DNA of 40,186 nucleotides from a virus. Lineage: Duplodnaviria > Heunggongvirae > Uroviricota > Caudoviricetes. The translations under genes and the position numbers were made by a program. The notes below the pieces were generated by a model. The model had not been told where the DNA came from. It worked only from the letters and a program-made list of their open reading frames with translations, and did not search any database. Shown piece after piece: positions 4,966-33,577 of this stretch; position 1 is the stretch's first letter, and every line of letters begins with the position of its first letter. The stretch lies in IMG/VR virus record IMGVR_UViG_2728369554_000009, positions 1 to 40,186 of that record. One strand, 5' to 3'.

Positions 4966-5042
4966 TTACCGTTGAGGTAATGATTATGCGTATCTGGTTT
5001 GATGTCAATAGATATGAGTTAAAAAAATTACCCATAAGGTAA
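4966..5042. promoter_or_regulatory. Leftward early control region with two TTACC-N5-GGTAA operators (4966-4980 and 5028-5042)
   Basis: Perfect palindromes ttaccgttgaggtaa and ttacccataaggtaa lie just upstream of the leftward operon. Confidence 0.6.
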
Positions 5043-5053
5043 TCTTGCTGGCA

Positions 5054-5078
5054 ATAAAAAAGCCGCCATGAGGCGGCT
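5054..5078 (-). terminator. Intrinsic terminator downstream of the repressor gene
   Basis: Minus-strand hairpin agccgcc/ggcggct followed by a T-run (an A-run at 5055-5060 on the plus strand). Confidence 0.7.
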
Positions 5079-5099
5079 TACTTACTGAAAAATATGATT

Positions 5100-5684
5100 T
5101 TATTGTTTGTTTTTTTCGTTCTGGCTGATGACAAATTCAATGTAACTTTCGATCTTTGCCTTCTCTGTTTCGGGTAACAATGCGTAGCGCGAGCGGTCAT
5201 AGTTGATAGTCGCAGGGTCGTGCGGGTGAATCAGTAATTCATAGCCGTGACGCCCGAATGCGGATGCAACATTCTCCAGGGTGGAAATGGAAACGCTGAC
5301 CTCATTGTTTAACAGGCGGCTGATTGTCACCTGGGCGACGCCGGATGCGCGGTGAAGTTTTCCCTGTGTTGAAAGGTAGCGGCTTTCGCTCATCCAGCGT
5401 TCCAGGTTGTGAGCCGCCAGCTGACCAATGTCGCTTGGGCCGACAGGCTGAAAACCTTCCTGAGAAAGCGAGCGATCGATATCAAGCCAGTTACGGGGTT
5501 TATTGGCGGCAGCTTCAATTTTTCGCGCAACCTGGTCGCCGATAACCTTCTTGCCAAGAGCCCAGCGGTTTACCAGATTTGCCTGAGTTCCAAGTTTTTC
5601 TGCCATCCGCGTCTGAACACCATTGAATTCACGGTCGATCAAGTCGTTGAGATTTTGCCTGCGGACGTCCTGGATACTTTTCAT
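5100..5684 (-). CDS. Prophage repressor with two HTH domains and no S24/LexA-like cleavage domain
   Basis: 194 aa. There are two XRE-type HTH segments (TRMAEKLGTQANLVNRWALGKK and LHRASGVAQVTISRLLNN). It is divergent from the Cro-like gene across a three-operator region. No Ala-Gly/Ser-Lys autocleavage module is visible. Confidence 0.75.
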   Translation of the reverse strand: MKSIQDVRRQNLNDLIDREFNGVQTRMAEKLGTQANLVNRWALGKKVIGDQVARKIEAAANKPRNWLDIDRSLSQEGFQPVGPSDIGQLAAHNLERWMSESRYLSTQGKLHRASGVAQVTISRLLNNEVSVSISTLENVASAFGRHGYELLIHPHDPATINYDRSRYALLPETEKAKIESYIEFVISQNEKNKQ

Positions 5685-5739
5685 TTTCTGGAAAATCGCC
5701 TCATATATGAATCAGTAGATGATTCAATTTAAAGCAATA

Positions 5740-5802
5740 TTACCCAACAGGTAAATGCACCTCATAGGTAACTATCCTTGATTTTTGTTACCTTATGGGT
5801 GA
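5740..5802. promoter_or_regulatory. OR-type tripartite operator between the repressor and Cro-like genes
   Basis: The three sites are 5740-5754 ttacccaacaggtaa (perfect), 5757-5771 gcacctcataggtaa and 5788-5802 ttaccttatgggtga (imperfect). A candidate rightward promoter has TTGATT (5778-5783), a 17-nt spacer and GAATAT (5801-5806). Confidence 0.65.
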
Positions 5803-5838
5803 ATATTTATTATCTGAAATAAATATCAGGCAATAGCT

Positions 5839-6069
5839 ATGAGCGATAACGGACATTTCGATTTCAAAAAGCACTGGCTTGCACTTACTCCGGATGAGCG
5901 TGAAGCCTTCGCACAGGAAGCCGGAACGACGAGTCACTATATCCAGACTCACTTAACAGGTAAGCGAAAAATGCCAGGTAAAGTATTGATGAATGGGCTT
6001 TTTAAAGCCTGTAAAACAAGACAATGGCTGCGCTCAAAAGCAGAACTGGCATACTTCTTCTACTCATGA
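5839..6069 (+). CDS. Cro-like small HTH regulator
   Basis: 76 aa. It is the first rightward gene after the operators. EAGTTSHYIQTHLTGKRKM resembles an HTH. Confidence 0.6.
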   Translation: MSDNGHFDFKKHWLALTPDEREAFAQEAGTTSHYIQTHLTGKRKMPGKVLMNGLFKACKTRQWLRSKAELAYFFYS

Positions 6070-6090
6070 TATCCAGCTACAACCCTCTGT

Positions 6091-6114
6091 AGACCGCCAC
6101 CCGGCGGTCTTTTC
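6091..6114 (+). terminator. Intrinsic terminator after the Cro-like gene
   Basis: Hairpin agaccgcc-accc-ggcggtct followed by tttt. Confidence 0.7.
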
Positions 6115-6124
6115 ATATCTATTC

Positions 6125-6139
6125 GTACCTCAAAGGTAA
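6125..6139. promoter_or_regulatory. Near-consensus operator (gtacctcaaaggtaa) ahead of the replication genes
   Basis: One mismatch to TTACC-N5-GGTAA. It lies directly after the terminator. Confidence 0.45.
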
Positions 6140-6218
6140 TAAAAAACCAAATCTGGTTGATCTTTTTTTGTGTCAGCACAAAATAACCGTAATCCCAATA
6201 CTAATAACAGGGCTTACC

Positions 6219-6419
6219 ATGGAAATCATTACACGTATTGATGCCGCAAAGCGCGGACTTAAACGCTACTACACCGGAAAACCATGTAAGCACGGACATG
6301 ACAGTGAACGCTGGGTTTACAACGGACACTGTGTTGAGTGCACCATGGAATCAAACCGTCGCATCAGGGCAGAGATTAAGCAGATCATGATTAATTCCAC
6401 CCCACAACATTCAAGCTGA
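6219..6419 (+). CDS. Small zinc-ribbon-like protein (66 aa)
   Basis: The start MEIITRIDAAKRG was chosen over the upstream TTG-type extension. Cysteine and histidine cluster: CKHGHDSERWVYNGHCVEC. Confidence 0.5.
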   Translation: MEIITRIDAAKRGLKRYYTGKPCKHGHDSERWVYNGHCVECTMESNRRIRAEIKQIMINSTPQHSS

Positions 6420-6434
6420 TAGCGGAGATTAATC

Positions 6435-7274
6435 ATGAGCAGACATGCAACAGATTGGGCCTGGGAGACAGATCCAGGTAGCTCGTCATTAAAGCTCATA
6501 CTGCTCTCGATGGCTGACAGAGCCGATGAATATAACCTCTGCTACCCCAGCATAGAACGCCTCGTTAAAGACACTTGCCTGAATAAAAAAACCGTGCAGG
6601 CCGGGCTTATATCACTCATGAAAATGGGGCTTATTTCAGATACCGGAGAGAGAAAGGGAGCGACGAAAAGAGTGCGGGTTTTCTCTCTTAATATAACCAA
6701 AAACGGGAACATTAAAGGCAACCGGGAAGGGGGTAATGAACCCGAAAACGGTAATGTTACCGAAAACGGGAATATACCCAAAAACGGGATGTTGAATGAT
6801 CCCAAAAACGGGATGTTGAATGATCCCAAAAACGGGATGTTGAATGATCCCAAAAACGGGATCCAGAACCAGTCATATAACCAGTCATTTAACCAAGAGA
6901 GGGAGAGCAGGACAAAAAGCGGGGATTCTGTGCCTAATGACCCCGGCGCAAACAACGCCGTGATGAATAACTTTGTTCCTCCTGGTGGGCCAGGGCAATT
7001 AGGCAAATTTGTCATGCATGAACAATGGCAACCATCAGATGACTTTCTTCGGAAAAGCTCATTGCAGGGGATCTACCTGGACAGTCTGCCAACGGCACAG
7101 GAACTTGCAGAGTTCAGAATTTACTGGATGGCTGAGGGTAAGGCATACCATCAGGCACAGTGGGAGCAGAAGCTGGCAAGGCGGCTGCAGATTAGCAGAC
7201 AGAAGCAATCAACATTACCTGATAACAACGTTCCGCACTGGAACAGCCCTGAAGCATGGGAGGATTTCTTGTGA
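6435..7274 (+). CDS. Replication initiator, O-like (N-terminal winged HTH, C-terminal DnaT-like region)
   Basis: 279 aa. Its N-terminus WAWETD...LKLILLSMADRADEYNLCYPSIERL is typical of phage replication HTH proteins. The iteron array is embedded in the gene, as in lambda O. Confidence 0.75.
   Translation: MSRHATDWAWETDPGSSSLKLILLSMADRADEYNLCYPSIERLVKDTCLNKKTVQAGLISLMKMGLISDTGERKGATKRVRVFSLNITKNGNIKGNREGGNEPENGNVTENGNIPKNGMLNDPKNGMLNDPKNGMLNDPKNGIQNQSYNQSFNQERESRTKSGDSVPNDPGANNAVMNNFVPPGGPGQLGKFVMHEQWQPSDDFLRKSSLQGIYLDSLPTAQELAEFRIYWMAEGKAYHQAQWEQKLARRLQISRQKQSTLPDNNVPHWNSPEAWEDFL
6697..6862. repeat. Origin-type iteron array
   Basis: About 7 copies of the core CC(A/C/G)AAAACGG(G/T)A. These include three perfect 24-bp tandem units cccaaaaacgggatgttgaatgat (6777-6848) plus a partial fourth. 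A short aaccagtcat duplication follows. Confidence 0.7.
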
Positions 7275-8056
7275 ACAACGTTTTTACCGCGATACAAAAC
7301 CGTGACGGAGAAGCCCTTTCTCGCATGTCAGGTTATGAGCATCAGTACGTCAACAATGACAATGTGGTGAACATGTCAGCAGAGAGGCTTGTTGATGCCC
7401 TTTTCAAACAGCTGAAACAACTGTTTCCGGCGGCAGTGGTAACCAACCTGAAGACGCCAGAGCAGGAAGTTGCTGCAAAACAGCAGTGGATTGCTGCGTT
7501 TGCCGAAGGTGGGATCCGAACCCGTGAACAGGTTTCTGCTGGTATGCGCCACGCTCGCGCCAGTGAGTCTCCGTTCTGGCCGTCGCCAGGGCAATTCATC
7601 AAGTGGTGTAAAGACAGCAAGATGGTTCTTGGCGTCACCATTGACGATGTGATGGCGGAGTTTCACCGGTACAGCAAGGAAAAAAGTTTATATCCTGGTG
7701 GTCCCGAAAGATTCCCGTGGCGGCATCCGGTTATGTACTGGGTCGTATGTGATACCCGCCGTGCAATGTATCAGCGCCAGCTTAGCGAGATTGAGGTTGA
7801 GAAACACGCGCGCAGGTTGCTCGATGATTGGGCGAAAAAGGTGGCTTCCGGACAGCAGATACCCGATCCGGTGATCAGCATACAGGCAAAGCCAGAACCC
7901 ATGAGTACACCTCCGGACACAGGGAGAGACGTTTACCATCCACCAGGGCGAAGTTTCGGGTGCATGCCTAACGCCGCCACCCTGGGGGGAATAACACCGG
8001 CGCAGTGGCTGATGGAGGAATACAGGCGAGGAAAGGCAGCAGGATTTATCAAGTAA
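7271..8056 (+). CDS. Replication protein P-like helicase loader
   Basis: The GTG at 7271 overlaps the upstream stop (GTGA), with GGGAGGA as the Shine-Dalgarno. QQWIAAFAEGGIRTREQVSAGMRHARASESPFWPSPGQFIKWC parallels the lambda P segment RRQWVLAFRENGITTMEQVNAGMRVARRQNRPFLPSPGQFVAWC as I recall it. Confidence 0.75.
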   Translation: MNNVFTAIQNRDGEALSRMSGYEHQYVNNDNVVNMSAERLVDALFKQLKQLFPAAVVTNLKTPEQEVAAKQQWIAAFAEGGIRTREQVSAGMRHARASESPFWPSPGQFIKWCKDSKMVLGVTIDDVMAEFHRYSKEKSLYPGGPERFPWRHPVMYWVVCDTRRAMYQRQLSEIEVEKHARRLLDDWAKKVASGQQIPDPVISIQAKPEPMSTPPDTGRDVYHPPGRSFGCMPNAATLGGITPAQWLMEEYRRGKAAGFIK

Positions 8057-8093
8057 TACCAGCGCGATAGCGCATTTTTTTACGCCTCAATAG

Positions 8094-8170
8094 TTACCCA
8101 ATGGGTAACAAAATGTTCTTAGATCTATTGATTTCGTGTCTTATGTGGTTTTTAATTACCTTAGAGGTAA
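8094..8170 (+). promoter_or_regulatory. Promoter region bracketed by two perfect operators (8094-8108 and 8156-8170)
   Basis: Sites are ttacccaatgggtaa and ttaccttagaggtaa. A candidate promoter has -35 TTGATT, a 17-nt spacer and -10 TTTAAT. The second operator covers the Shine-Dalgarno (gagg) of the next gene. Confidence 0.55.
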
Positions 8171-8173
8171 ATC

Positions 8174-8518
8174 ATGAGAAAACAGATACAGGCTCTTGGT
8201 CGACTCAAAACAGGCCAGATGAACAAAACAGAATCTGCGTATTGCCAGCACCTTGAGCTGCGTAAACGTGCAGGGGAAATCGCCTGGTATCGATTCGAGG
8301 GTATCAAGCTGCGGTTAGCTGACAACACGTTCTATACGCCAGATTTCGCTGTGATGCTCGCCACCGGAGAGATGGAACTGCACGAAGTGAAAGGTTTCTG
8401 GACCGACGACGCCAGGGTGAAAACCAAAGTCGCCGCAGATCAGTATCCGTTCCGAATCATCGGGGTAACGGTTAAACCAAAGAAAGCAGGTGGCGGCTGG
8501 AACATCGAAGAGTTCTGA
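8174..8518 (+). CDS. DUF1064-like protein (nuclease or resolvase-like fold)
   Basis: 114 aa. TESAYCQHLELRKRAGEIAWYRFEGIKLRLADNTFYTPDFAV...HEVKG resembles the DUF1064 pattern from memory. Confidence 0.55.
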   Translation: MRKQIQALGRLKTGQMNKTESAYCQHLELRKRAGEIAWYRFEGIKLRLADNTFYTPDFAVMLATGEMELHEVKGFWTDDARVKTKVAADQYPFRIIGVTVKPKKAGGGWNIEEF

Positions 8519-8579
8519 ATCGACGATCTTTTTAGTTATCAATGTAATCAATAAGTTATGTGGATAAGCGAGGGTAAAG

Positions 8580-9563
8580 ATGGAAAGTAATATCAAAGGG
8601 TTAGTTGCCGCCGGGCATGAGATGGCTTCGGAACTGAACGCAGAATGTGGTGCCGTTGATATGCGCAGTGTGGCAAAGCTGATCAGCGATTTGGCAACGC
8701 AACTGGAAGTGCAACTGGTGCGTGCTAATGCGCTGGCAGCGGAGAATGCTGGGCTTAAGGCCTTCAAAACCGCCGTTTATCAGCAGATGGGCGTCGGATG
8801 TGATGCTCCTGAATTCTCCATTACGACAGGTTTGAGTAACTTACGTCGTTTTGCTGACACACTCCACGCCATTGAACGTGAGTTCTTTACCAAAGAGCTA
8901 CCTGATGAAGAGCACGAAGGCGAAACATTCAATGAATGTCCACTTAGCTGGGGAATGAGCGTCGAACAGTACGTTTCCGAGTTTCGCAAATGCCTGGCTG
9001 AAGTGCGGGCGCAGGGCGTGGATGCTGCTATAGAAGCTGCAAAAAATCTGGTGGCCCAAGAATATGAGTATAAGGATTTCAAAGCGGCGCAGAGTGATTG
9101 CTGTATGCACCCTGGTTCAGACCTAGTAGGGAAGGTTGAAATGACTGAGTGGTTAGTTGACTTTGCTGCCCAGCTTCGCAAAGGAGGCAACCAGGCTGCC
9201 GAATCCAATCGCGGTAATGAGTGGACTGGCAATCCTGATATTGATAACGCCATCATCATGCTCGACCGCATAGATACGCTGGAAAATTGCGATGATGACC
9301 GTATTGAGGCTGTTAAGGCTGTTTTGCGTAGACTGGCTGGCAACTATCCGGTAATTCCGGATGGTTGGATAAGCTGTAGTGAGCGAATGCCGAAAGAAAC
9401 GGGTGACATTATTGTTGTTTCGGATGGCATTGTAATGTCCGGGATTTCTTATTCTCGTCGTGACGGGTTCTATATAGCCGCATTGGAGTACGACGACGAT
9501 GAGCCAATTGGCGGTGTAACCCACTGGATGCCGCTACCGAAACCGCCGCAGGAGGTGAAGTGA
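8580..9563 (+). CDS. Hypothetical early protein with a DUF551-like C-terminus
   Basis: 327 aa. The C-terminal DGWISCSERMPKETGDIIVV...GVTHWMPLPKPP is the DUF551 signature. Confidence 0.55.
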   Translation: MESNIKGLVAAGHEMASELNAECGAVDMRSVAKLISDLATQLEVQLVRANALAAENAGLKAFKTAVYQQMGVGCDAPEFSITTGLSNLRRFADTLHAIEREFFTKELPDEEHEGETFNECPLSWGMSVEQYVSEFRKCLAEVRAQGVDAAIEAAKNLVAQEYEYKDFKAAQSDCCMHPGSDLVGKVEMTEWLVDFAAQLRKGGNQAAESNRGNEWTGNPDIDNAIIMLDRIDTLENCDDDRIEAVKAVLRRLAGNYPVIPDGWISCSERMPKETGDIIVVSDGIVMSGISYSRRDGFYIAALEYDDDEPIGGVTHWMPLPKPPQEVK

Positions 9564-9847
9564 TGGACTCCTTCGCGAAATATACGATTATTGACTGGAT
9601 AGCATTCCTTCAGGTTTTGCTCATCTGGTTTTATATGGCTTACAGGAGTGGACAGTGGATTGTCAGTGTAGCCTGTAGCAAGGGATGGCGTTGGTGGAAC
9701 CGAAAGAATAAAAAAGCACTGGCCTTGGATTCGTTTTACGAAGCATTCAATCTTAACAGTCTTCAGCCTGGTTCTGTCGTTGTAGTCACCACTCAAAGCG
9801 GAATGACGATACAAATTCACAAGCCAAAGGAGGAAGGTCGTGGCTAA
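9563..9847 (+). CDS. Small membrane protein (94 aa)
   Basis: The ATG lies 6 nt after GGAGGTG. Hydrophobic segment: IIDWIAFLQVLLIWFYMAY. Confidence 0.5.
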   Translation: MDSFAKYTIIDWIAFLQVLLIWFYMAYRSGQWIVSVACSKGWRWWNRKNKKALALDSFYEAFNLNSLQPGSVVVVTTQSGMTIQIHKPKEEGRG

Positions 9848-10121
9848 CCTGCAACTTGCCGTAAAAGGTGAATACTTCAATGCCATGATTCGCGGAGAGA
9901 AAACGGAAGAGTATCGCTTGTGTAATGACTACTGGAAAAAGCGAATTATGTTCCGGGAGTATGACCGCCTGATTATCACAAGGGGATATCCGAAGCGCGA
10001 CGACTTCAGTCGCAGAATTGACGTCCCGTATGAAGGGTATGAAATCAAGACAATCACACATCCGCACTTCGGCGATAAACCGGTAAAGGTGTTCGCGATA
10101 AAGGTAAATATTGATGGCTAA
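9840..10121 (+). CDS. ASCH-like domain protein
   Basis: GTG start after AAGGAGGAAGG. LAVKGEYFNAMIRGEKTEEYRL...RLIITRGY resembles ASCH/DUF3850. Confidence 0.55.
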   Translation: MANLQLAVKGEYFNAMIRGEKTEEYRLCNDYWKKRIMFREYDRLIITRGYPKRDDFSRRIDVPYEGYEIKTITHPHFGDKPVKVFAIKVNIDG

Positions 10122-10452
10122 ATCAGCAGCAGAGCGCAAAGCCGCTCAGAGAGCCAGACAAGCTGCATCTGGTGTGCGTAAGCTGGAGATTGTGCTTGAT
10201 GCTCAGGAAATTGAAATGCTTGAGCGGAACTGCGCCGCCCGGCGCCCTGGTCGCGATCCCTATGAAATGGCCGAGTACATCGCGCTGCTGATCCGCCAGG
10301 ATGATGCACGTGTGCGCGGGCGTATAAAATCGATCAGCAGAAAACTTTGCGGTAAGTGCGGCGAGAGAGTTCCCGTTAATTCATGCCCGTGTAATGGTGA
10401 CTCGCAATGCTGGGTGACTAAAGGCTGGCATGAAACGAAATTAATAGTGTGA
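10114..10452 (+). CDS. Cys-rich basic protein and possible late regulator. It is the last gene before the terminator and terminase genes.
   Basis: 112 aa. Cysteine cluster: CGKCGERVPVNSCPCNGDSQC. The function is inferred from position only. Confidence 0.45.
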   Translation: MAKSAAERKAAQRARQAASGVRKLEIVLDAQEIEMLERNCAARRPGRDPYEMAEYIALLIRQDDARVRGRIKSISRKLCGKCGERVPVNSCPCNGDSQCWVTKGWHETKLIV

Positions 10453-10460: not shown

Positions 10461-10501
10461 GAGTAGATTATGCATGATGAATTTGATGGGTTTTGAATAC
10501 T

Positions 10502-10527
10502 GCCGCCAACTATGGCGGCTTTATTTT
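10502..10527 (+). terminator. Intrinsic terminator between the early-right genes and the terminase genes
   Basis: Hairpin gccgcca-acta-tggcggc followed by tttatttt. Confidence 0.75.
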
Positions 10528-10530: not shown

Positions 10531-10566
10531 TGGTACTATTACCACAACGGTAACTATTACCACGGT
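10531..10566 (+). repeat. Two direct repeats GGTA(A)CTATTACCAC spaced 18 bp apart, just upstream of terS
   Basis: tggtactattaccac / ggtaactattaccac. Each holds the GGTA/TACC half-site words in reversed order. Confidence 0.6.
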
Positions 10567-10570
10567 GGTT

Positions 10571-11167
10571 ATGATGCCTGCTGAACCTAAAACCTATAAA
10601 CGCAAATCAACGCAATTTAAGCCACTAACAGCAATGCAGGAGGCTTATTGCCAGTCATACATCAAAACGCCTGAAAACCAGACTCAGGCAGCGATTAACG
10701 CAGGATTCTCCCCAAATACAGCGGCAGTTAAAGCCAGTGTCATGATGCGCGATGAACGCATTCAAAAACGGATTGCCGAGTTGATGGAGGAGCGCAACAA
10801 ACGAATGCGCGTCAGTGCTGATTACGTTCTCATGCGCCTGGTGGAGATCGACCAGATGGACGTGATCGACATCCTCAACGACGATGGGAGCCTTAAGCCA
10901 ATCCGCGAGTGGCCGAAAATCTGGCGCACTACGCTTAGCGGCTTTGATCTGTCATCGACCATCATGAACATGAACGAGGATTCGATAGAGACAATCCTCA
11001 AAAAAATTAAATGGCCTGACAAGGTGAAGAACCTCGAACTGATTGGTAAGCACGTCGACGTCAAAGCATTCAAAGAACGCCTGGATGTTAATGTGAATGT
11101 GACAATTGCTGATCGCATAGCAGCAGCCAGGAAGCGACTCAAAGAACGTCAGGATGGTAATCAGTGA
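10571..11167 (+). CDS. terS: Terminase small subunit
   Basis: The start was moved to the ATG at 10571 (MMPAEPK). QEAYCQSYIKTPENQTQAAINAGFSPNTAAVKASVMMRDERIQKRI is the Terminase_2-type HTH segment. Confidence 0.75.
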   Translation: MMPAEPKTYKRKSTQFKPLTAMQEAYCQSYIKTPENQTQAAINAGFSPNTAAVKASVMMRDERIQKRIAELMEERNKRMRVSADYVLMRLVEIDQMDVIDILNDDGSLKPIREWPKIWRTTLSGFDLSSTIMNMNEDSIETILKKIKWPDKVKNLELIGKHVDVKAFKERLDVNVNVTIADRIAAARKRLKERQDGNQ

Positions 11168-13803: not shown

Positions 13804-13818
13804 TTACCTGAAAGGTAA
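13804..13818. promoter_or_regulatory. Perfect TTACC-N5-GGTAA operator ahead of the structural operon
   Basis: ttacctgaaaggtaa, 90 bp upstream of the first structural ORF. Confidence 0.55.
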
Positions 13819-13908
13819 TAATTTGTGCGTTAAATGTCAACTACCTACGATAAATAAATCATATGTGGTTAAATTGGTAATAATTTAATTGCGTACGGAG
13901 TCATTGAT

Positions 13909-25833: not shown

Positions 25834-28800
25834 TGCCGTTCTATCCTGTATCTGAATCAAACAATAACGGATTTATTTCTGCTGGTCTCGCCATTCCTGA
25901 ACCTGATGAACAGAGTTTTGATGTGCATCCGCCAGAAGGTAAGAACCCTGAACCTCGTCCCAAAGAGCCTTCATTGCTTGCCGCAGCAATACGACAGAAC
26001 AATATTCTGGCTGGTTTTTTCCGTCCTGCCAGACAGTTTGAACCGGTCGAAGGTTATAACCCATATGCTGATAAAAATGAGTTGCACGGTTATGAATACT
26101 GGGGGGCGAAATTTGCAGATTCCCGATCGCCAGAGGAAACGGCGTGGATTAAGCAGCAGATAGATGATGAAAATGAAGACAGACGTTTATTGTCTGATGC
26201 TGGCGTAGTTGGAACTCTTGCCAGTATTGCTGCAGGAATGGATCCGGTTACCGTTGCGTCAATGTTTATCCCCGGTGCTCAAGGAGGGGCACTGGCGCGT
26301 ATTGGCTCACAGATTGCGATTGGTGCTGCCGGTACAGCATTAAGCGAGGTTGTGCTGAATAATCAGCAAATAACACGCTCATGGGGTGAAAGTGCCGCTC
26401 ACGTTGCAGCGGGTGCGATGATGAGCGGCGTGTTTGCCAGTGCTGGTGTTGCGCTTTCGCCATCCGTCCGGGCTGCAGCCACGCGTGAGGTTGCTGATGC
26501 TCTTGATAATATGAGCATTACATCAGCGACTGACAGGGCTGCCGCTTCGCTTTCTGATGGTGGTAGTGTTGGTGCTATGAAAATTGATACAGCGACTCTG
26601 GATGATTTAACCCCTGTTTCCGGTGGGTGGGTTGGAAAGGCTGCATGGAAAGCAGGGAGCTATCTTACTCCTTTGACAAGGTTAATGGAGTCTCCGTCCA
26701 AGACAGTGCGAAAAACAACGCTGGAGTTAGCCGAAAATAATTTCACCCTTAAAGGAAATGAAAGGGGGATTGAAACACCGGTAGCTGTAGAAACCCGTAC
26801 ACGTGGATGGCAGCGTGAAGAAGCTGCTGTTGTTGTCGGAAATAAACAGGCATACGCAAAGTATAAAGCTGATGGTGGTGACATGAGTTTTGATTCATTT
26901 CGTCAGCAGGTTGGGAATGCTATGCGAAGCGGTGATGTGCATGCTAATCCTGTTGTTCAGGAAACGGCGCAGGCGATGCGAACTGTATTAAATCGGGTGA
27001 AAGTTGAAATGCAAAAGCTTGGTTTATTGCCGCCAGATGAAGAACTGAAAGCATTAGGCCAGGCAAGCTATTTCCCACGCATATATAAAGTTGGAAAAAT
27101 AATCAGTGAACGCGATAAATTTCGACGTATTTTGGTTGACTGGTGGTCGAGAGGAAATAAAACACTGGATCCTGAGGATGCTGAAATTGCAGCGGATATC
27201 GTAATTAATAAAATTACTGGTGCTAAGGTTCCACAGGATTTTGTCAGCGTATTTTCTGTAAAAGCCGCAGGTAGTACGAAAGAAAGAACATTAAATGTTC
27301 CTGATAGTCTTATCGGTGATTATCTTGAAAGTGATGTGAATTACGTGCTGCAACGTCATATCCGTGAAGCGGCAGCAGAAATTGAGTTGATGAGAACATT
27401 TGGCAAACGAACTATGACTGAGCGTCTGCAATTAATTGAGGACGAATATGACAGTCTGTTACGGGAAGTGCCTGAAAAAATAAAGGCGAAATATGACGAA
27501 AGTGTGGCAAATCTGAAAGCACGTTATGAGAGCAATGGTGAAGTTGTTCCTCAGGGTAAACTCGATTCATTAATGCGAAAGTACGAAAAGGAATTACGGA
27601 AAGAACAGTCCAGACTTTCAAAATCAAGAGCAAATGATCTCAGAGACATAACAGCATTACGCGATCGTCTTGTTGGTACATATGGGATGCCTGATGATCC
27701 GTCTTCGTTTTTTGTTCGTGCTGGCGCTTTTCTGCGGGATGTGAACTTCACGACCAAACTCGGTGGAATGACAGTATCAGCTATTCCAGATCTGGCCAGA
27801 GGGGTTATGGTTAATGGTTTCCGTAACACCATGAAAGGCTATGCTTCTCAGATATCCCAATCACCGGCATTTAAGGCCAGCAAAGAAGATATGTTGAAGA
27901 TGGGGATTGGATTGGAAGCTGTACTACATTCACGTTCTCGTGCAATTGGTGATCTTGTTGACAGTTCTTCCAGGACAACAGCAGTCGAAGCAGGAATGGA
28001 GCGAATTACTGATGCCTTCGGCAAGCTGACACTCATGGATCGATTTAATGACATAAACAAATCCATGAACGGAATGCTCACGTCAGACGGTATTTTGTCC
28101 GGTGCGTTTTCTGCACGTCGCATGGCAAAACTCGGTATCAACGACAATATGGCTGCGCGTATTCGCAGTGAGTTCGAGAAACATGGTGAGGTAATTGATG
28201 GATGGCACATTGGTAACTTTGATAAATGGGACGATCAGTACGTTGCCGGAGTATTCCAGTCAGCGGTTCTGAAAGACGTTAATAACACTATCATCACCCC
28301 CGGTATTGGTGACACACCTTTATGGGCGAGTACTCCAATGGGGCGAACGATATTTCAGTTTAAATCATTCACAACGGCTTCATACAACCGTGCGCTACTT
28401 GGTGGGTTACAGGAAGGAACTGCGCAATTTTATTATGGCACTGCATTTCAGATTGCTCTTGGCTCACTGGTCTATGCGCTTAAAGAAGCATCGAAAGGGA
28501 AAAATGTTGACTGGTCACCAGAGAAGCTGGTGCTTGAGGGTATAGATAGATCCGGTATTCTTGGGCCATTGATGGAATATAACAACATGGCTGAAAAGGC
28601 GACTGGTGGTGCTGTTGGGCTGGGGGCTTTATTTGGCACTGGCACACAGTCCAGGTATGCCAGTCGTGGATTCGTAGGATCTCTATTCGGACCGTCATTT
28701 GGTCTTGCGGATAGCATCATTGATGTGACCTCAGGAGTGTTGAATGGTGATGCCGGTGATCGTATTGTGCATAATGTCCGAACCCTGATACCCGGCAATA

Positions 28801-28853
28801 ACCTGTTCTGGATTGCGCCACTAATAAACCAAGTGGATCCGGTGATGCGTTAA
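25833..28853 (+). CDS. Large internal virion or ejection protein
   Basis: 1006 aa. It is the last gene of the ejection block and has glycine-rich hydrophobic segments. Confidence 0.6.
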   Translation: MPFYPVSESNNNGFISAGLAIPEPDEQSFDVHPPEGKNPEPRPKEPSLLAAAIRQNNILAGFFRPARQFEPVEGYNPYADKNELHGYEYWGAKFADSRSPEETAWIKQQIDDENEDRRLLSDAGVVGTLASIAAGMDPVTVASMFIPGAQGGALARIGSQIAIGAAGTALSEVVLNNQQITRSWGESAAHVAAGAMMSGVFASAGVALSPSVRAAATREVADALDNMSITSATDRAAASLSDGGSVGAMKIDTATLDDLTPVSGGWVGKAAWKAGSYLTPLTRLMESPSKTVRKTTLELAENNFTLKGNERGIETPVAVETRTRGWQREEAAVVVGNKQAYAKYKADGGDMSFDSFRQQVGNAMRSGDVHANPVVQETAQAMRTVLNRVKVEMQKLGLLPPDEELKALGQASYFPRIYKVGKIISERDKFRRILVDWWSRGNKTLDPEDAEIAADIVINKITGAKVPQDFVSVFSVKAAGSTKERTLNVPDSLIGDYLESDVNYVLQRHIREAAAEIELMRTFGKRTMTERLQLIEDEYDSLLREVPEKIKAKYDESVANLKARYESNGEVVPQGKLDSLMRKYEKELRKEQSRLSKSRANDLRDITALRDRLVGTYGMPDDPSSFFVRAGAFLRDVNFTTKLGGMTVSAIPDLARGVMVNGFRNTMKGYASQISQSPAFKASKEDMLKMGIGLEAVLHSRSRAIGDLVDSSSRTTAVEAGMERITDAFGKLTLMDRFNDINKSMNGMLTSDGILSGAFSARRMAKLGINDNMAARIRSEFEKHGEVIDGWHIGNFDKWDDQYVAGVFQSAVLKDVNNTIITPGIGDTPLWASTPMGRTIFQFKSFTTASYNRALLGGLQEGTAQFYYGTAFQIALGSLVYALKEASKGKNVDWSPEKLVLEGIDRSGILGPLMEYNNMAEKATGGAVGLGALFGTGTQSRYASRGFVGSLFGPSFGLADSIIDVTSGVLNGDAGDRIVHNVRTLIPGNNLFWIAPLINQVDPVMR

Positions 28854-28874
28854 TCAATATTTATTGGAGTTCTT

Positions 28875-29402
28875 TCAATGGCTGTTTATGGCTTCTAAAG
28901 AAGCTTCTGCACTTATCGGCAAAGCAATAGTATCCTTGTTAGATGTGCTATTGCTTTCCAGAACTATGGAAATCCAATCCTCTTGGTTTTCATTAATTGT
29001 GCTGACAGCCATGATAGCATTCAAATCATTTTTATATATTTCTGATCGAATAAGACCTTTCCTGAATAATTTAGTTAAGTTTTCAGCTATCGACATCGCA
29101 CGAATGCTAACTTTACTAAGCTCAATTGCGTCACTACCTGCGACTTTGGCGTGTTGAGAAAGAGCCATCAAAGCTATATGTGAAAATGTTTCTTCTTTTG
29201 AAAAACCGTTACTTAAAGACATGAGTGATACACCAGCTCCGTATGGGGTGAGTTTATATCCTGATACATTCAGTGCATGCTCTACAAAGGTAAGATCATC
29301 AGTTGTAGAAACATGCATATCGTTACTTTTTTGTTTTTTTGCAATAAATAAAAAAACAAAATTAATAATCACGATGCCGACGATGATTAAGAAAACTTCC
29401 AT
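28875..29402 (-). CDS. Membrane-anchored orphan protein (175 aa): N-terminal transmembrane helix plus a ~145-aa soluble domain
   Basis: MEVFLIIVGIVIINFVFLFIAKKQK signal-anchor. GAGGA Shine-Dalgarno. It has its own operator-bearing promoter. The DNA is visibly AT-rich compared with its flanks. Confidence 0.6.
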   Translation of the reverse strand: MEVFLIIVGIVIINFVFLFIAKKQKSNDMHVSTTDDLTFVEHALNVSGYKLTPYGAGVSLMSLSNGFSKEETFSHIALMALSQHAKVAGSDAIELSKVSIRAMSIAENLTKLFRKGLIRSEIYKNDLNAIMAVSTINENQEDWISIVLESNSTSNKDTIALPISAEASLEAINSH

Positions 29403-29422
29403 TGCTTTTCCTCACAATAACA

Positions 29423-29437
29423 TTACCTTAAAGGTAA
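29423..29437. promoter_or_regulatory. Perfect operator 21 bp upstream of the membrane-protein ATG
   Basis: ttaccttaaaggtaa. Confidence 0.55.
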
Positions 29438-29462
29438 TATTTTGTGCTAATGTGATCAAGTG

Positions 29463-29861
29463 TTAAGTGTATACCTCCTGCTGTTCAGTCGTGATTTTAC
29501 CCGGCAACACCTTTTTAGCTTTGCGCGGGTTAACCACATGGCCTTTAGTCCAGTACTCGTAGAGCACATCATCACACTCTTCCTGATACTGGATTACCTT
29601 ATCGCGGATTTCAGGGCGGACTTTGTTTGGACTGATGCTGTTCAACCAAGCTGCCAATTTTCGTAAAGCCATACAAATCATGGCTTGCACCCCTCCGGCA
29701 GAAGGTATGGTGATTTCCACCATACCCTTCGAGAAGCGTTGAGAAATCTTCTTATGTTGAGATTTCCAGTCTAGACCCATTCCCTCAACGATAGGTTTCA
29801 TTGGGGTGTACGGTTCGCCGTTGTGATTGACAACATAAAGTTCTACGCCGTGGAATGGCAC
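29463..29861 (-). CDS. P22 Ant N-terminal-domain-like protein (132 aa, GTG start)
   Basis: PFHGVELYVVNHNGEPYTPMKPIVEGMGLDWKSQHKKI matches the P22_AR N-terminal pattern as I recall it. The long Ant C-terminal part is missing. Confidence 0.6.
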   Translation of the reverse strand: MPFHGVELYVVNHNGEPYTPMKPIVEGMGLDWKSQHKKISQRFSKGMVEITIPSAGGVQAMICMALRKLAAWLNSISPNKVRPEIRDKVIQYQEECDDVLYEYWTKGHVVNPRKAKKVLPGKITTEQQEVYT

Positions 29862-30008
29862 GTTGATAGTAGTGACAAGTTTGAAACATCGCTGGTTGTA
29901 AGCCAGCAGATGCTCGTTATTTTACATCGCGGTACAATTTCTCGCTGGTGGCTCTTTTATACACCTTAACCAAATATGGTTGATTTTGATATTTATCTTC
30001 GTCTATTA

Positions 30009-30265
30009 TTACCTTTTCGGTAAATTTACATCGCACTCCTCTTGTGCCATAGTAATCGGGCACTGGCAAAATCCAGTGCCGGGATTGGTCTCCCGGATTA
30101 CTACAGAGGCACATATGCCGCATAAGCGGTTTTTTTATGTGTAAAGCGCACCTATTCTATGGTGGGCTGTGTGGGGGCACCGAAAGGTGCGCCGGGTTCC
30201 TTTGTAGCCGGTAAGACCAACTCTGCACAGTTCACCACCATCTGATTGGTCTCAGCGGTGGTGAT
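30009..30265 (+). repeat. Outer inverted repeat, arm A (operator plus structured leader)
   Basis: It is the reverse complement of 32938-33197. The first 95 nt are identical. After that there is patchy identity with paired substitutions. Confidence 0.85.
30024..30136 (+). ncRNA. Terminated leader sRNA, copy A, possibly C4-like
   Basis: An outer stem tagtaatc/gattacta (30050-30057 / 30096-30103) encloses hairpins ggcactgg-caaaat-ccagtgcc and ggga-ttggtc-tccc. Hairpin ccgc-ataa-gcgg plus T7 follows. The loop ttggtct is complementary to agaccaa in the downstream leader. Confidence 0.5.
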
Positions 30266-30290
30266 TAACCTAACTACAAAGGTGATCGCC

Positions 30291-30983
30291 ATGAATACCA
30301 AACCTTCCATCTTTTCCTTTGAGTCATCCTGCCAGATCCGTATGTTCATGATTGACGGAGAACCTTGGTTTGTCACCAAAGATGTGTGCAATGCTTTGAA
30401 TATTGATGTTACACAAGCGAGAAAACTTGATAAAAAAGGCTGGAACAAAAAGGGGCTGTATTCAATACAGACCCCTGGTGGAATACAAGAACTATCCATC
30501 GTTTCAGAATCAGGTCTCTACATCCTTATTCTGCGTTGCAAAGAGGCAATGACTGAGGGAACGAGAGCATTCAGATTTCTTGAATGGGTTACAGGTGAGG
30601 TTCTTCCTCAGATCCGCCGCACCGGAAGTTACATTAAAAACTCGCTCCCGCAGGAAGAACGCATAAAGATGGTTGCCGACCAGGTAGCCAACGCCACGGC
30701 GTCAGCAGTAATGCAGGCGATGAAGATAGAGAACAAAACCTACAGTGCCCCGCTGAAGCCCGGCTACCGCAGCCTGATTCATTCTCCGTCTGGTGTTCTC
30801 GGCCTGACGGAGAACTCACTGCTGATGAATCTGCTGAACCAGTTACAGGAAGACGGGCACGATGTATCGGGCGCGGCGGCGGAGCTGACCACCATGTTCT
30901 GCTACATCGTCGGTGTGAGCAAATGCCTGCGTGATATCCAGACGCACGCGGAATACATCAACGACAAGGCAGGGTTCTTCTGA
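30291..30983 (+). CDS. Antirepressor 1: Bro-N domain plus the shared C-terminal module
   Basis: The start MNTKPSIFSFE lies behind AGGTGA. QIRMFMIDGEPWFVTKDVCNALNI is Bro-N-like. The last ~81 aa are nearly identical to those of the 32255-32911 product. Confidence 0.75.
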   Translation: MNTKPSIFSFESSCQIRMFMIDGEPWFVTKDVCNALNIDVTQARKLDKKGWNKKGLYSIQTPGGIQELSIVSESGLYILILRCKEAMTEGTRAFRFLEWVTGEVLPQIRRTGSYIKNSLPQEERIKMVADQVANATASAVMQAMKIENKTYSAPLKPGYRSLIHSPSGVLGLTENSLLMNLLNQLQEDGHDVSGAAAELTTMFCYIVGVSKCLRDIQTHAEYINDKAGFF

Positions 30984-31008
30984 CAGAACGGCGGCACAGG
31001 GACGTGCA
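30741..31008 (+). repeat. Inner inverted repeat, arm A (antirepressor C-terminal module plus about 25 nt of 3-prime UTR)
   Basis: About 8 mismatches over about 245 coding nt against the reverse complement of 32230-32497, from manual alignment. Confidence 0.85.
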
Positions 31009-31021
31009 AAACGAAACTAGC

Positions 31022-31033
31022 GTGACATGTCAC
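31022..31033. repeat. 12-bp palindrome GTGACATGTCAC, copy 3
   Basis: Exact sequence directly abutting the terminator at 31034-31058. Confidence 0.8.
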
Positions 31034-31058
31034 AGGCCGCTTTCGCGGCCTTGTTTTT
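31034..31058 (+). terminator. Intrinsic terminator after antirepressor 1
   Basis: Hairpin aggccgc-tttc-gcggcct followed by tgttttt. Confidence 0.75.
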
Positions 31059-31218
31059 AACGAATGCCACCGCCACCCGGGCGGGAATCCGCAGAACGCC
31101 CACCGCAGCGGGAGCCGTCAGCAGCAGTGTCGCTGTCGTGCTGACAACGACCGGCAAAGGCCTGAGTTGAAGCTACCAGAGACAACAAAACGAACAGTGC
31201 AGCAAATGCTTTTTTCAT
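31057..31218 (-). CDS. Small secreted peptide (53 aa) with an Excalibur-like D-x-D...DG-x-x-C segment
   Basis: The signal peptide MKKAFAALFVLLSLVASTQAFA is followed by GRCQHDSDTAADGSRCGG. A candidate promoter of its own has TTGACG, a 16-17-nt spacer and TATAGA. It is GC-rich, unlike its neighbours. Confidence 0.45.
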   Translation of the reverse strand: MKKAFAALFVLLSLVASTQAFAGRCQHDSDTAADGSRCGGRSADSRPGGGGIR

Positions 31219-31299
31219 TGTGAAATTTCCATCTATAAACCACCTCAATGTGGCGTCAATGAGTGTAGCACTGACTTTTGTTTCGTCCATAAAAAACTA

Positions 31300-31812
31300 C
31301 TATGCAGGCTTTTTGGATTTGTACGAATAATCCCACGGATAAACATTTCTACTAAGTGGAGCTGTATTCGTTCGTTCATGAAATAATTTTGTGAAATTCA
31401 ATACGGAATCCATCCAAACTTTTGCGTTAGCTTTGGTGTGTGCGGGCGGGTCCCAATAAGCTAGTAAGGCTGCATCTCTTATTTCATTGACTGCATATAT
31501 GAGATATGCGTTACTGGTTGGTTTTGGCCTGTAATTTCCTTGTTCATCAATCAATCCATATGACCACTCATCCCAACACTGTTCAGTACATGAGTATGAA
31601 TATGATGCATATTCACCAATATTGACATGAACCTTTCTGAGATGGAAGCCTAATACTTCCTCTGGTCTTTCAAAAAGAGTATCTTTTCCCAGATCAGGAT
31701 GATGACCATGACGCCAGTGTTGTTTAAAAGCATCTTTTAGCGAAATCAGAAAGTCATCAGTTTTAAACTCACCAGTAGGTATAACCTTCCCGCTATACTC
31801 ACTCAAAAACAT
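31300..31812 (-). CDS. YafO-like toxin-family protein (170 aa)
   Basis: LKDAFKQHWRHGHHPDLGKDTLFERPEEVLGFHLRKVHVNIGE and NAYLIYAVNEIRDAALLAYWDPPAH parallel YafO segments (..PDIFGRDALYDD..VAHIHLAN.. and ..AHLVYCQG..AWLLIAIL.PEPH), which I am recalling from memory. AT-rich DNA. Confidence 0.5.
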   Translation of the reverse strand: MFLSEYSGKVIPTGEFKTDDFLISLKDAFKQHWRHGHHPDLGKDTLFERPEEVLGFHLRKVHVNIGEYASYSYSCTEQCWDEWSYGLIDEQGNYRPKPTSNAYLIYAVNEIRDAALLAYWDPPAHTKANAKVWMDSVLNFTKLFHERTNTAPLSRNVYPWDYSYKSKKPA

Positions 31813-32125
31813 CGAATTCCTCTTCCTTCATATGCGTTTCTAATGAGTTAAGCTGGCGGAAAGATATCTCTTTTGATTCTGCAGATGAGAGCTTTTTTAT
31901 CCGCTTTATATTCTTTGTGATAGGAATAGACATTGTATGCACATCAGCGGATGCTCTTGGCTTTGTGCTGATAAAAATATGGCGCAATGCCGCATTTTCA
32001 CTATTGAACGAGCCAATAGCTGATTTACGTGCTACAACCTTACCAGTAAAAATACGACTCTTGCTACGCTTTGCATGAGTTCCGCTTCTTACCGGACCTC
32101 TCATCACGAATCCAAGTTTTGTCAT
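31799..32125 (-). CDS. Upstream partner of the YafO-like gene (108 aa, basic N-terminus, acidic tail EEEFDVFE). Putative antitoxin of an unrecognised family.
   Basis: It overlaps the downstream gene by 14 nt. A promoter with a perfect operator lies 43 bp upstream. Confidence 0.5.
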   Translation of the reverse strand: MTKLGFVMRGPVRSGTHAKRSKSRIFTGKVVARKSAIGSFNSENAALRHIFISTKPRASADVHTMSIPITKNIKRIKKLSSAESKEISFRQLNSLETHMKEEEFDVFE

Positions 32126-32167
32126 CTTTAATCTCCGGTAAGTTACAGGTATAAAATAAAAACAGGT

Positions 32168-32182
32168 TTACCTTTAAGGTAA
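32168..32182. promoter_or_regulatory. Perfect operator upstream of the two-gene operon
   Basis: ttacctttaaggtaa. Confidence 0.55.
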
Positions 32183-32229
32183 TAGTACGCTATTCACCCC
32201 CGGTCTGCAATCTGTACAGAATTATTTAA

Positions 32230-32497
32230 AGGCACATCCCTGTGCCACCGCCCGTCAGAAGAACCCTGCCTTGTCGTTGATGTACTCCGCGTGGGTCTGG
32301 ATATCACGCAGGCATTTGCTCACACCGACGATGTAGCAGAACATGGTGGTCAGCTCCGCCGCCGCGCCCGATACGTCGTGCCCGTCGTCCTGTAACTGGT
32401 TCAGCAGATTCATCAGCAGTGAGTTCTCCGTCAGGCCGAGAACACCAGACGGCGAATGAATCAGGCTGCGGTAGCCGGGCTTCAGTGGGGCGCTGTA
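32230..32497 (-). repeat. Inner inverted repeat, arm B
   Basis: Reverse complement of 30741-31008. Confidence 0.85.
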
Positions 32498-32911
32498 TTC
32501 TTTTTTGTCTTCCAGCTTGATCGCCTCCATTATGGCGGGCATGAAGCCTGACAAGACCTTCTCCACTTTTGTTTCTTGTTGTCTTAAACGTTTCTCGCAT
32601 TCAATGAAGTAGCGTCGCACCTGGCGACCTTTTTCGTTACGCTCGACCATCGCCAGCTCTTTGGCTGTATCAAGGGTGAGGTGGTACTCTTTGCGGTTGT
32701 GGCCGCCTCTACCAGATGTTTGCTTTCCCAAATTGGAAAGCAAAATATAGTCTTGATTTTCAATGAATTCGTATTCTGATATGCGATTTGTAATCCATGC
32801 TGCAAACACCTTTTTAACACCTAAAAAAGCGTGCAGATCGCGGGCATTACAAAGTAGGGCTGTTTCGTTAGATATAGTGCCGTTGAATACGGGGATGAGT
32901 TGAGCGTTCAT
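32255..32911 (-). CDS. Antirepressor 2: AntA-type N-terminal domain plus the shared C-terminal module
   Basis: [37 protein letters not shown]...[29 protein letters not shown] is the AntA/AntB pattern. Confidence 0.75.
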
Positions 32912-33069
32912 GATGGCGTCTCCACTTAGCGAATTACATCACCACCGCTGAGACCAATCAGATGGTGGTGAACTGAACGGAGTTGGTCTTACCGGCCTAA
33001 GTGGTACCGGCGTCCTTTCGGACCCCCATTCAGCCCACCATAATTCTGGCATGACTGTGCTATACGCAT

Positions 33070-33182
33070 AAAAAAACCACGTCTGGCGTGGTATGCGCCA
33101 CTTAGTAATCCGGGAGACCAATCCCGGCACTGGATTTTGCCAGTGCCCGATTACTATGGCACAAGAGGAGTGCGATGTAAAT
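33070..33182 (-). ncRNA. Terminated leader sRNA, copy B
   Basis: Its body (33103-33156) is identical to copy A. The terminator stem differs (ccacg-ccaga-cgtgg plus T7), so the structure is kept while the sequence changed. Confidence 0.5.
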
Positions 33183-33197
33183 TTACCGAAAAGGTAA
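33183..33197. promoter_or_regulatory. Perfect operator at the head of leader B. Its mirror at the head of leader A is 30009-30023.
   Basis: ttaccgaaaaggtaa. Confidence 0.55.
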
Positions 33198-33228
33198 ATA
33201 TAAGCACTCCACTTGGTAATTGCAAACC

Positions 33229-33486
33229 TTATCTGGTTTGTTTTCGTAATTGTTCGGCACAATAGTCGAGATGTGTTTGCAGATCCTGCATAGACATCTG
33301 TGAGCTGGTGACGTAGTTAATCAGTGCAGTCAGTTCGGCAAGTGGGCCATCGACATTAAATCCATCCTTATCGAGATCCCGGAGTAATTTCATCAAGTGC
33401 GATCCCTCCACCAGTGACCTGACGCCTCCCGGCGTGTGAATCCTTTCGGTAAATCCGTCTTCCAGTGGATAGTGATACTGCTGCAT
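33229..33486 (-). CDS. Mini-antirepressor (85 aa) made only of a diverged copy of the shared C-terminal module
   Basis: The start MQQYHYPLEDG lies behind GGAGAAG. HTPGGVRSLVEGSHLMKLLRDLDKDGFNVDGPLAELTALINYV aligns with [44 protein letters not shown]. The longer 126-aa ORF would include the LexA box. Confidence 0.6.
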   Translation of the reverse strand: MQQYHYPLEDGFTERIHTPGGVRSLVEGSHLMKLLRDLDKDGFNVDGPLAELTALINYVTSSQMSMQDLQTHLDYCAEQLRKQTR

Positions 33487-33507
33487 CTTATCTTCTCCAT
33501 GCAATAA

Positions 33508-33523
33508 CTGTATATTTATACAG
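33508..33523. promoter_or_regulatory. LexA (SOS) box CTGTATATTTATACAG
   Basis: A perfect CTGT-N8-ACAG with an AT-only spacer, 22 bp upstream of the mini-antirepressor ATG. Confidence 0.8.
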
Positions 33524-33562
33524 TAGCAAATAATTTGTTTGCTATCCAGCACGTTTTGCAAA

Positions 33563-33577
33563 TTACCTGAAAGGTAA
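33563..33577. promoter_or_regulatory. Perfect operator in the divergent region between the mini-antirepressor and the tailspike gene
   Basis: ttacctgaaaggtaa, with the same spacer as the site at 13804. Confidence 0.55.

Follow-up and report, generated by a model that had tools for sequence, protein, structure and literature searches.

The 40,186-nt stretch of DNA analysed here (the window; IMG/VR record IMGVR_UViG_2728369554_000009, Caudoviricetes) represents an epsilon15/phiV10-like temperate podophage of the genus Uetakevirus, with long stretches of about 97% identity to phiV10, PAS61, phiv142-3, ZX5 and TL-2011b. Its non-coding DNA is marked by a recurrent palindrome, TTACC-N5-GGTAA (N5, any five bases), and we consider it probable, at roughly 0.8, that in the extended form aTTACC-N5-GGTAAt this motif constitutes the operator set of the Uetakevirus lysogeny repressor Rep, and probably also of the Cro-like protein, a reading drawn from sequence and homology. 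The motif and its scattered distribution are already annotated for epsilon15. Because that record marks the same motif at orthologous places, the network is known both in kind and in sequence, and our analysis is a sound rediscovery of it, not the description of a new system. Beyond the existing annotation we propose an abutment of promoter -10 elements and operators, a 62-bp bracketing of two promoters, operators on three genes for antirepressor (Ant) domain proteins and on accessory slots, and an operator specificity shared across genera.

Twelve perfect copies of TTACC-N5-GGTAA are present in the window, together with three copies that carry one mismatch (5788, 6125 and 10557) and a fourth degenerate site at 5757, GCACCTCATAGGTAA, which carries two; these 16 sites fall into eleven loci. 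Across 100 dinucleotide-preserving shuffles, 0.00 perfect copies were expected, and copies with at most one mismatch numbered 15 in the window against 0.8 expected, in line with the first-pass annotation of this DNA, which had put the chance number at well under one. That annotation had counted 11 perfect copies, each of which we recovered, and had overlooked a twelfth at 10539-10553; its one-mismatch list was right for 5788 and 6125, wrongly included 5757 and omitted 10557. Site 5757 is the conserved middle member of the triplet between rep and cro, and we regard it as genuine despite its two mismatches, since epsilon15 and SPC32H carry a perfect site at the orthologous position.

None of the 16 copies lies in true coding sequence, as had been stated for the smaller set. 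Although a naive set of longest open reading frames (ORFs) takes up 92.7% of the window, 11 of these sites are found in the residual 7.3%. The remaining five overlap ORF segments that we do not take for genuine genes: an intrinsic terminator lies in the TTG-extended start of the small terminase, whose PHROG match begins only at residue 29; two site-bearing ORFs without a PHROG match overlie Rfam isrK and C4 RNAs; and the N-terminal extension of the small ant ORF holds a LexA box, with the PHROG match beginning at residue 42.

Within the immunity region, the sites form the left-operator pair and right-operator triplet that the first-pass annotation had recognized. Promoters, here and below, come from a position-weight scan checked against shuffled upstream DNA. 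Left operator 1 (4966-4980) and left operator 2 (5028-5042), both perfect, bracket the leftward early promoter TTGACA-17-AATCAT (5008-4980, minus strand; score 11.6, p~0.01). The first minus-strand base of left operator 1 is the last base of the promoter -10, with the site centred near +1, and left operator 2, 62 bp away, lies just downstream of the intrinsic terminator of rep (5060-5079, minus strand), an 8-bp stem, 6 of its pairs being G-C, with a T run behind it. The 194-aa Rep is encoded at 5100-5684 on the minus strand. Between its gene and that of the 76-aa Cro-like helix-turn-helix protein (5839-6069, plus strand; phrog_35, transcriptional repressor) lie a perfect site nearest rep (5740-5754), overlapping the -35 and spacer of a candidate leftward rep promoter; the middle site GCACC...GGTAA (5757-5771), 17 bp from 5740; and the one-mismatch site nearest cro, TTACC...GGTGA (5788-5802), within the -35 and spacer of the rightward early promoter TTGTTA-17-TATTAT (5785-5813; score 12.2). 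Sites 5757 and 5740 are 31 and 48 bp from 5788 on the rep side. A further one-mismatch site, GTACC...GGTAA (6125-6139), follows the cro terminator (6091-6110) by 15 nt and lies about 60 nt upstream of the predicted start of the replication-gene promoter; both this site and its TTGATC promoter are conserved in phiV10, Tyrion and BUCT711.

Rep contains two helix-turn-helix regions and matches SPC32H Rep (PDB 5d50_A) with E=1.4e-41. Its C-terminal half matches 5d4z, the Rep tetramerisation and Ant-binding domain, and Pfam assigns HTH_3 and YdaS-like HTH domains but no Peptidase_S24 autocleavage domain to the protein. It is 99% identical to the repressor of vB_EcoP_ZX5, whose overexpression left no free phage, blocked lytic growth and lowered holin and endolysin transcripts by 99.97-99.99% (PMC9782041). 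SPC32H Rep is reported, in a secondary source, to bind palindromic DNA as a tetramer, its DNA-binding pairs being drawn from different dimers (PMC9638917). The putative recognition helix of Rep, NLVNRW, is unchanged among Reps sharing 43% identity. A helix of the Cro-like protein, TSHYIQTHL, is invariant in five genomes, and this protein probably reads the same sites as Rep.

A search for the motif in related phages, suggested in the first-pass annotation, found it at orthologous positions in ten genomes or prophage stretches spanning five genera (Salmonella, Escherichia, Klebsiella, Enterobacter and Serratia). The named relatives are epsilon15 and SPC32H (Salmonella), phiV10 (Escherichia), BUCT711 (Klebsiella) and Tyrion (Enterobacter); operator knowledge for epsilon15 and SPC32H was taken from the epsilon15 record and from secondary citations. 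The epsilon15 RefSeq record (NC_004775.2) carries seven features labelled "protein_bind: repressor, lysogeny" with the sequence ATTACC-N5-GGTAAT, located before the small terminase, before gp3/portal, in the ant/tailspike region, at the left operator (three) and before the nin-like unit. Each of the five named phages has 8-11 perfect copies at orthologous positions, and in four prophage stretches with Rep 53-65% identical to that of the window, one of them from Serratia, the motif is present and TTACC is the sole enriched palindrome of the 5-N5-5 form. The window sites with orthologues in these relatives include those at the left and right operators, the nin-like pair, the small terminase, the portal and the ant/tailspike region.

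Across 85 perfect sites from these genomes, the N5 spacer and the flanks vary, the flanks showing an A/T preference only and the centre of N5 being 94% A/T; since this set consists of perfect copies, its ten half-site bases are fixed by the search itself. Weaker variants are conserved as well, namely TCACC at the cro-proximal right operator in all relatives, GCACC at the middle right operator of E. coli-type phages, and GTACC or ATACC past the cro terminator. The 62-bp spacing between perfect copies recurs in 9 of 10 genomes, and the pair at the leftward promoter is spaced 62-63 bp in 10 of 10 when one-mismatch copies are counted. In four contexts with variants of the Rep helix (PNLVSRW, PNLINRW and ANLISRW), TTACC-N5-GGTAA is kept at the same places. 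Text searches of the literature for the motif returned no match.

The sites also hold a characteristic position relative to predicted promoters. At 4966, 8156, 29423, 30009, 32168 and 33183, a sigma70 -10 element abuts the site or lies at most 2 nt from it, and each of these promoters is directed into the gene that follows; at five of the six, the -10 and TTACC share a T, which ends the one and starts the other, and 10539, with an extended -10 in the same register, provides a seventh locus. In the pairs 4966/5028 and 8094/8156, the second operator stands exactly 62 bp upstream, leaving the promoter bracketed.

Taken together, these features are consistent with a mechanism in which Rep would act as a non-cleavable SPC32H-type protein, with two helix-turn-helix regions, that is inactivated by antirepressor. 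Through some 16 sites, nearly every transcription unit would come under its direct control: the leftward early unit, the rightward early unit with rep, replication, the nin-like unit, terminase, the portal-upstream region, two variable accessory slots, two isrK/C4-ant cassettes and the small ant/tailspike divergent region. On sites that abut a -10, bound Rep would block open-complex formation. Because 62 bp corresponds to about six helical turns, the spacing may be that needed by a tetramer with two DNA-binding pairs, and we suggest that one Rep tetramer, with its two DNA-binding dimers, could hold the 62-bp pair and clamp the promoter at the leftward early and nin-like units. The weaker variants TCACC, GTACC and GCACC would give graded occupancy. 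Since Rep would repress the promoters of its own antirepressors, Rep and Ant would form a double-negative switch, triggered through LexA at small ant.

Several observations weigh against so uniform a picture of repression. All promoters are predictions, and a number of sites are not placed as simple occlusion would have them: 6125 is found near -59; at the isrK promoters (-44) and at small ant (-45) the site ends 1 nt before the -35, in a position compatible with activation; and the portal and tailspike sites are 70-85 nt upstream of the likely late transcription starts. A relative combining a different recognition helix with a different motif, through which covariation of repressor and operator would show, was not found among 80 IMG/VR loci, all 99% identical in Rep, and 86 homologues from protein searches, which extend down to about 52% identity. 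At the sites not placed for occlusion, Rep may act through looping, or even activation.

We are considerably more guarded about a wider formulation, which we regard as possible but rather doubtful. According to it, one tetrameric, antirepressor-switched Rep directly silences every unit, including the late genes, swappable accessory genes and all three antirepressor genes, through 10-16 operators frozen, together with their 62-bp pairing, across at least five enterobacterial genera; the size of the network may block divergence of immunity specificity, and the operators may mark junctions of module exchange.

Two inverted cassettes of the order operator-promoter-isrK-C4-Ant are present (29980-30983 and 33226-32255). 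The first-pass annotation had placed operators before two antirepressor leaders; an operator does stand in front of both, and the leaders are known isrK/C4 RNA modules represented in Rfam. In the rightward cassette (30060-30983, plus strand), isrK (30060-30136) and the C4 antisense RNA (30155-30242) precede a 245-aa Ant (30246-30983) composed of a Bro-N domain and a C-terminal small-Ant domain (phrog_130 and phrog_450); the RNAs at 30060-30242 match RF01394 with 74.7 bits and RF01695 with 78.6 bits. Its mirror image (32255-33146, minus strand) comprises isrK (33146-33070), C4 (33045-32961) and a 218-aa Ant (32911-32255). The C-terminal Ant domain behind each isrK/C4 leader is 37% identical to small Ant. 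The perfect operator of the first cassette (30009-30023) lies between two tandem rightward promoters, abutting the -10 of TTGATT-18-TATTAT (p~0.01) and ending 1 nt before the -35 of the promoter for isrK (TTTACA-17-CATAGT). That of the mirror cassette (33183-33197), also perfect, has conserved counterparts in phiV10 and Tyrion; it abuts the -10 of TTGCAA-17-TATATT (p~0.004) and likewise ends 1 nt before the isrK -35. This position between two promoters at 30009 can be likened to P1 immI, where a repressor-controlled promoter is said to lie upstream of a constitutive one. The TTACC site is always present in Uetakevirus isrK-ant cassettes; in those of Hafnia yong2, VT2-Sakai, APSE-2 and PhiR47_1 the promoter is kept and the site is absent, and homology with these cassettes of other immunity sets in where isrK transcription starts.

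The small antirepressor Ant (85 aa; 33229-33486, minus strand) matches PDB 5d50_E with E=3.5e-47 and is 85% identical to SPC32H Ant. A LexA box (CTGTATATTTATACAG; 33508-33523), conserved in six genomes, is located at its promoter, and the perfect operator of the small ant/tailspike divergent region (33563-33577) is followed toward ant, after 1 nt, by a TTGCAA -35 and toward the tailspike, about 33 nt further on, by a conserved element, ATATGTGGTT. The window thus encodes three proteins with an SPC32H-type Ant domain (phrog_450), each behind a TTACC-N5-GGTAA site. We also note that the antirepressor is far more conserved than its target, Rep being about 42% identical to SPC32H Rep and small Ant 85% identical to its counterpart.

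It is at these antirepressor genes that another role for Rep has to be weighed. Rep might serve as an activator, or be neutral, at the two isrK promoters and the small-ant promoter, so that the lysogen would go on making isrK/C4 RNAs with the upstream tandem promoter closed. At all three promoters the site ends 1 nt before the -35, close to the position of OR2, from which lambda CI activates PRM. In Gifsy-1, moreover, the antirepressor-like gene behind isrK is transcribed from the isrK promoter, but its message is not translated (PMC4825925). The case is nevertheless one of geometry alone, no activation patch is known on Rep, and the sites at the isrK promoters also abut strong upstream promoters (scores 12.4 and 13.0), which is enough to explain them. 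We judge activation or neutrality unlikely at these loci.

Lower still is the probability we assign to binding mainly by another phage protein, either the 76-aa Cro-like protein or an uncharacterised 113-aa regulator encoded at 10111-10452, just upstream of the small terminase gene, with Rep confined to the left and right operators or acting nowhere. The Cro-like helix is invariant across the genus and its gene adjoins the right-operator triplet; in addition, several scattered sites are upstream of, not over, likely late promoters, which would suit a regulator of the lytic phase. However, sharing of operators between repressor and Cro is the norm, and occupancy by the Cro-like protein complements occupancy by Rep more than it competes with it. 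The NLVNRW helix of Rep is equally invariant, the epsilon15 curators assigned the sites to the repressor, and overexpression of Rep silences late transcripts (PMC9782041). The 113-aa protein, for its part, gave no match in Pfam, NCBIfam or PDB sequences and belongs to no detectable DNA-binding family.

Rep operators, as we read them, also precede the nin-like, terminase and portal units. The upstream nin-like site (8094-8108, perfect) follows a weak conserved terminator at about 8060-8080, and the downstream one (8156-8170, perfect, 62 bp further on) abuts the -10 of TTGATT-17-TTTAAT (p~0.04), is conserved in six genomes and overlaps the Shine-Dalgarno sequence of the gene at 8174-8518. The perfect site missed earlier (10539-10553) lies upstream of the small terminase gene, 20 nt past a terminator (10502-10519), and abuts the extended -10 TGgTACTAT, with TGnTACTAT directly before the site conserved in five genomes; the one-mismatch site at 10557-10571, 18 bp from it, overlaps the ribosome-binding region and start of that gene. 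Upstream of the portal/structural operon, the perfect site at 13804-13818 overlaps the -10 of a conserved leftward promoter, whose -35 (13840-13835) is the consensus TTGACA, followed by a 17-nt spacer and TACCTT; about 45 nt further downstream comes a conserved ATATGTGGTT element. A leftward tRNA gene lies downstream of the orthologous site in SPC32H; unlike in that phage, the window showed no tRNA in its leftward unit ahead of the portal gene.

Elements of the ATATGTGGTT type, in the form (C)ATATGTGGTT, are found at 8141-8150, 13861-13870, 33608-33617 and 37038-37047, and on the minus strand also at 29968-29977. Copies with at most one mismatch number 7 against 2.8 expected, and they are nearly invariant in six genomes. 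At the nin-like, portal and tailspike units a copy follows the operator by 31-45 nt, and one is also found upstream of the lysis genes; a -10-like hexamer comes 7-10 nt after the element, without a good -35. The element may be an activator-dependent middle or late promoter element.

At the lysis genes of the window (36800-37108), no operator was found even when two mismatches were allowed. Relatives carry a conserved site there, mostly TCACC...GGTAA (24704, 24782, 24692 and 26408 in the relatives indexed L001, L002, L003 and L005, respectively), which the window lacks because its tailspike-to-lysis region differs and is without an O-antigen modification gene.

The first-pass annotation had gone on to describe a genome cut into separately operated units, with most sites following an intrinsic terminator and no reliance on lambda-style antitermination. 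What stands of this network is one palindromic operator that serves on the left and on the right of the immunity region and recurs ahead of most of the remaining units. Only about half of the sites follow a terminator: 5028, 6125, 8094, 10539 and probably 32168 do so, and 13804, 29423, 30009, 33183 and 33563 do not. Downstream of the terminators that close the cro and replication units, promoters are predicted at 6157 and 8128, and the proteins scanned gave no match to N/Q antitermination families. The statement about antitermination is unsupported, given that the late units (portal, tailspike and lysis) share the conserved ATATGTGGTT element, without a good -35 and not sigma70-like, and that the uncharacterised 113-aa regulator precedes the small terminase.

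Two further sites head variable accessory slots. The perfect operator at 29423-29437 stands beside the -10 of a leftward promoter, TTAACA-16-CAAAAT (p~0.03), 21 nt upstream of a 175-aa gene (28875-29402); promoter and operator are common to TL-2011b, the body of the gene is not. The perfect operator at 32168-32182 abuts the -10 of leftward TTGCAG-17-TACTAT (p~0.02), ahead of a three-gene leftward unit (32125-31057) whose 170-aa product has a weak Pfam match to YafO toxin (E=7e-4, below the curated cutoff). At the equivalent slot, the annotation of TL-2011b gives a YafO-family toxin. Homology with TL-2011b and phiv142-3 begins exactly at this operator, the genes on its opposite side being different, and what lies behind the promoter and operator differs in three phages, which carry two versions of the YafO-type unit or a small ORF. 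Homology breakpoints relative to TL-2011b, phiv142-3, Tyrion and phiV10 fall within 0-9 bp of operators, at 32166-32168, 13804, 8177 and 30000-30019.

Such breakpoints would be expected if the sites were recombination sequences at module boundaries devoid of any regulatory role, an explanation to which, along with that of targets for a host transcription factor, we give very little weight. Breakpoints beside a conserved island are to be expected whatever the role of the island, and the clustering of sites around rep and cro, their fixed position relative to promoters and the conserved 62-bp spacing all count against it. So does the absence of the motif from the isrK cassettes of other-immunity phages that infect the same hosts.

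Least credible is a function of the palindromes in RNA, as hairpins masking ribosome-binding sites or as processing or termination signals: 8156, for which the first-pass annotation had raised a hairpin role, and 10557 do overlap ribosome-binding regions, and the 10539/10557 pair folds to -12.4 kcal/mol, but single-site stems reach only -3.3 to -5.9 kcal/mol, barely unlike shuffled sequence, many sites are upstream of or at a predicted transcription start and would not be fully transcribed (at 8156 the predicted start lies inside the site), sites occur in both orientations relative to transcription, and the ten stem bases are unchanged over the 85 perfect-copy sites without compensatory variation, which speaks for sequence-specific recognition and not for structure.

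Among known systems, epsilon15 is the nearest, with the same motif (ATTACC-N5-GGTAAT) and placement within the same genus. It differs in having seven marked sites, against 12 perfect and four degenerate ones in the window, and three left operators against two; it is without the accessory cassettes that bear the extra sites (the two isrK/C4-ant cassettes, the 175-aa gene and the YafO-like unit), the window has no site before the lysis genes, and the epsilon15 Rep is only about 42% identical to that of the window. The Rep-Ant lysis-lysogeny switch of SPC32H was reportedly described by Kim and Ryu in 2013 and by Kim et al. in 2016. SPC32H shares with the window full-length Rep homology, the 85%-identical small Ant, the LexA box at the ant promoter and 10 perfect motif copies at the same places, whereas two further Ant-domain proteins behind isrK/C4 leaders are found in the window, for which a switch of this kind is proposed from protein homology.

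The C1 repressor of P1 likewise governs many separate operons through scattered operators, comparable with the eleven loci found here, and P1 immI (c4-icd-ant, Op51) places a C4 antisense RNA and antirepressor cassette under a repressor-controlled promoter. P1 operators are, however, asymmetric 17-mers and C1 is unrelated to Rep, whereas the window site is a perfect palindrome and Rep is of the HTH_3 type. With lambda CI/Cro the window shares the divergent rep and cro genes, the three graded sites that separate them and further operators at the leftward promoter; its 62-bp pairs may be compared with operators a whole number of helical turns apart, to which binding is cooperative, as reportedly shown by Hochschild and Ptashne in 1986. 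Unlike lambda CI, Rep has no S24 domain, induction would proceed by antirepressor and operators are found far outside the immunity region. The stoperators bound by gp71 of mycobacteriophage L5 resemble the present sites in their number and in their placement in short intergenic gaps genome-wide, yet they are asymmetric and orientation-dependent and block elongation inside transcription units, whereas the window sites are palindromic and lie at or next to promoters, at seven loci at the -10 or transcription start.

The site map offers a ready outline of the likely Rep regulon in phiV10-like E. coli prophages, a group with members that infect O157 strains, and raises the questions of whether a tetramer clamps pairs of sites six turns apart, whether accessory genes, including the weakly YafO-like gene, are expressed only upon induction, and how three Ant-domain genes under LexA, isrK/C4 RNA and Rep combine into one switch.

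As to its boundaries, the window begins exactly at the start codon of the integrase gene. In all complete relatives, a one-mismatch site, TTACC-N5-GGTAT, is conserved about 57 nt upstream of the integrase gene (L003 26870, L001 26882, L002 26960, L005 28568 and L004 12620), and the matching DNA falls outside the window. At the other end (39020-40186), a sequence resembling the published core of the phage attachment site attP (AGAGTGGGAATGATT) is present at approximately 39025-39040, and two further leftward genes lie past it, encoding a phrog_1094 protein and a DNA methyltransferase. The window looks like a predicted prophage whose right end overruns the attachment site into other mobile DNA. 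Finally, three identical 20-nt hairpin-forming units (TGGGATCATTCAACATCCCG) with a 24-bp period occur at 6785-6852, inside the replication-initiator gene (6435-7274); by analogy with the lambda O gene, these repeats look like origin iterons.

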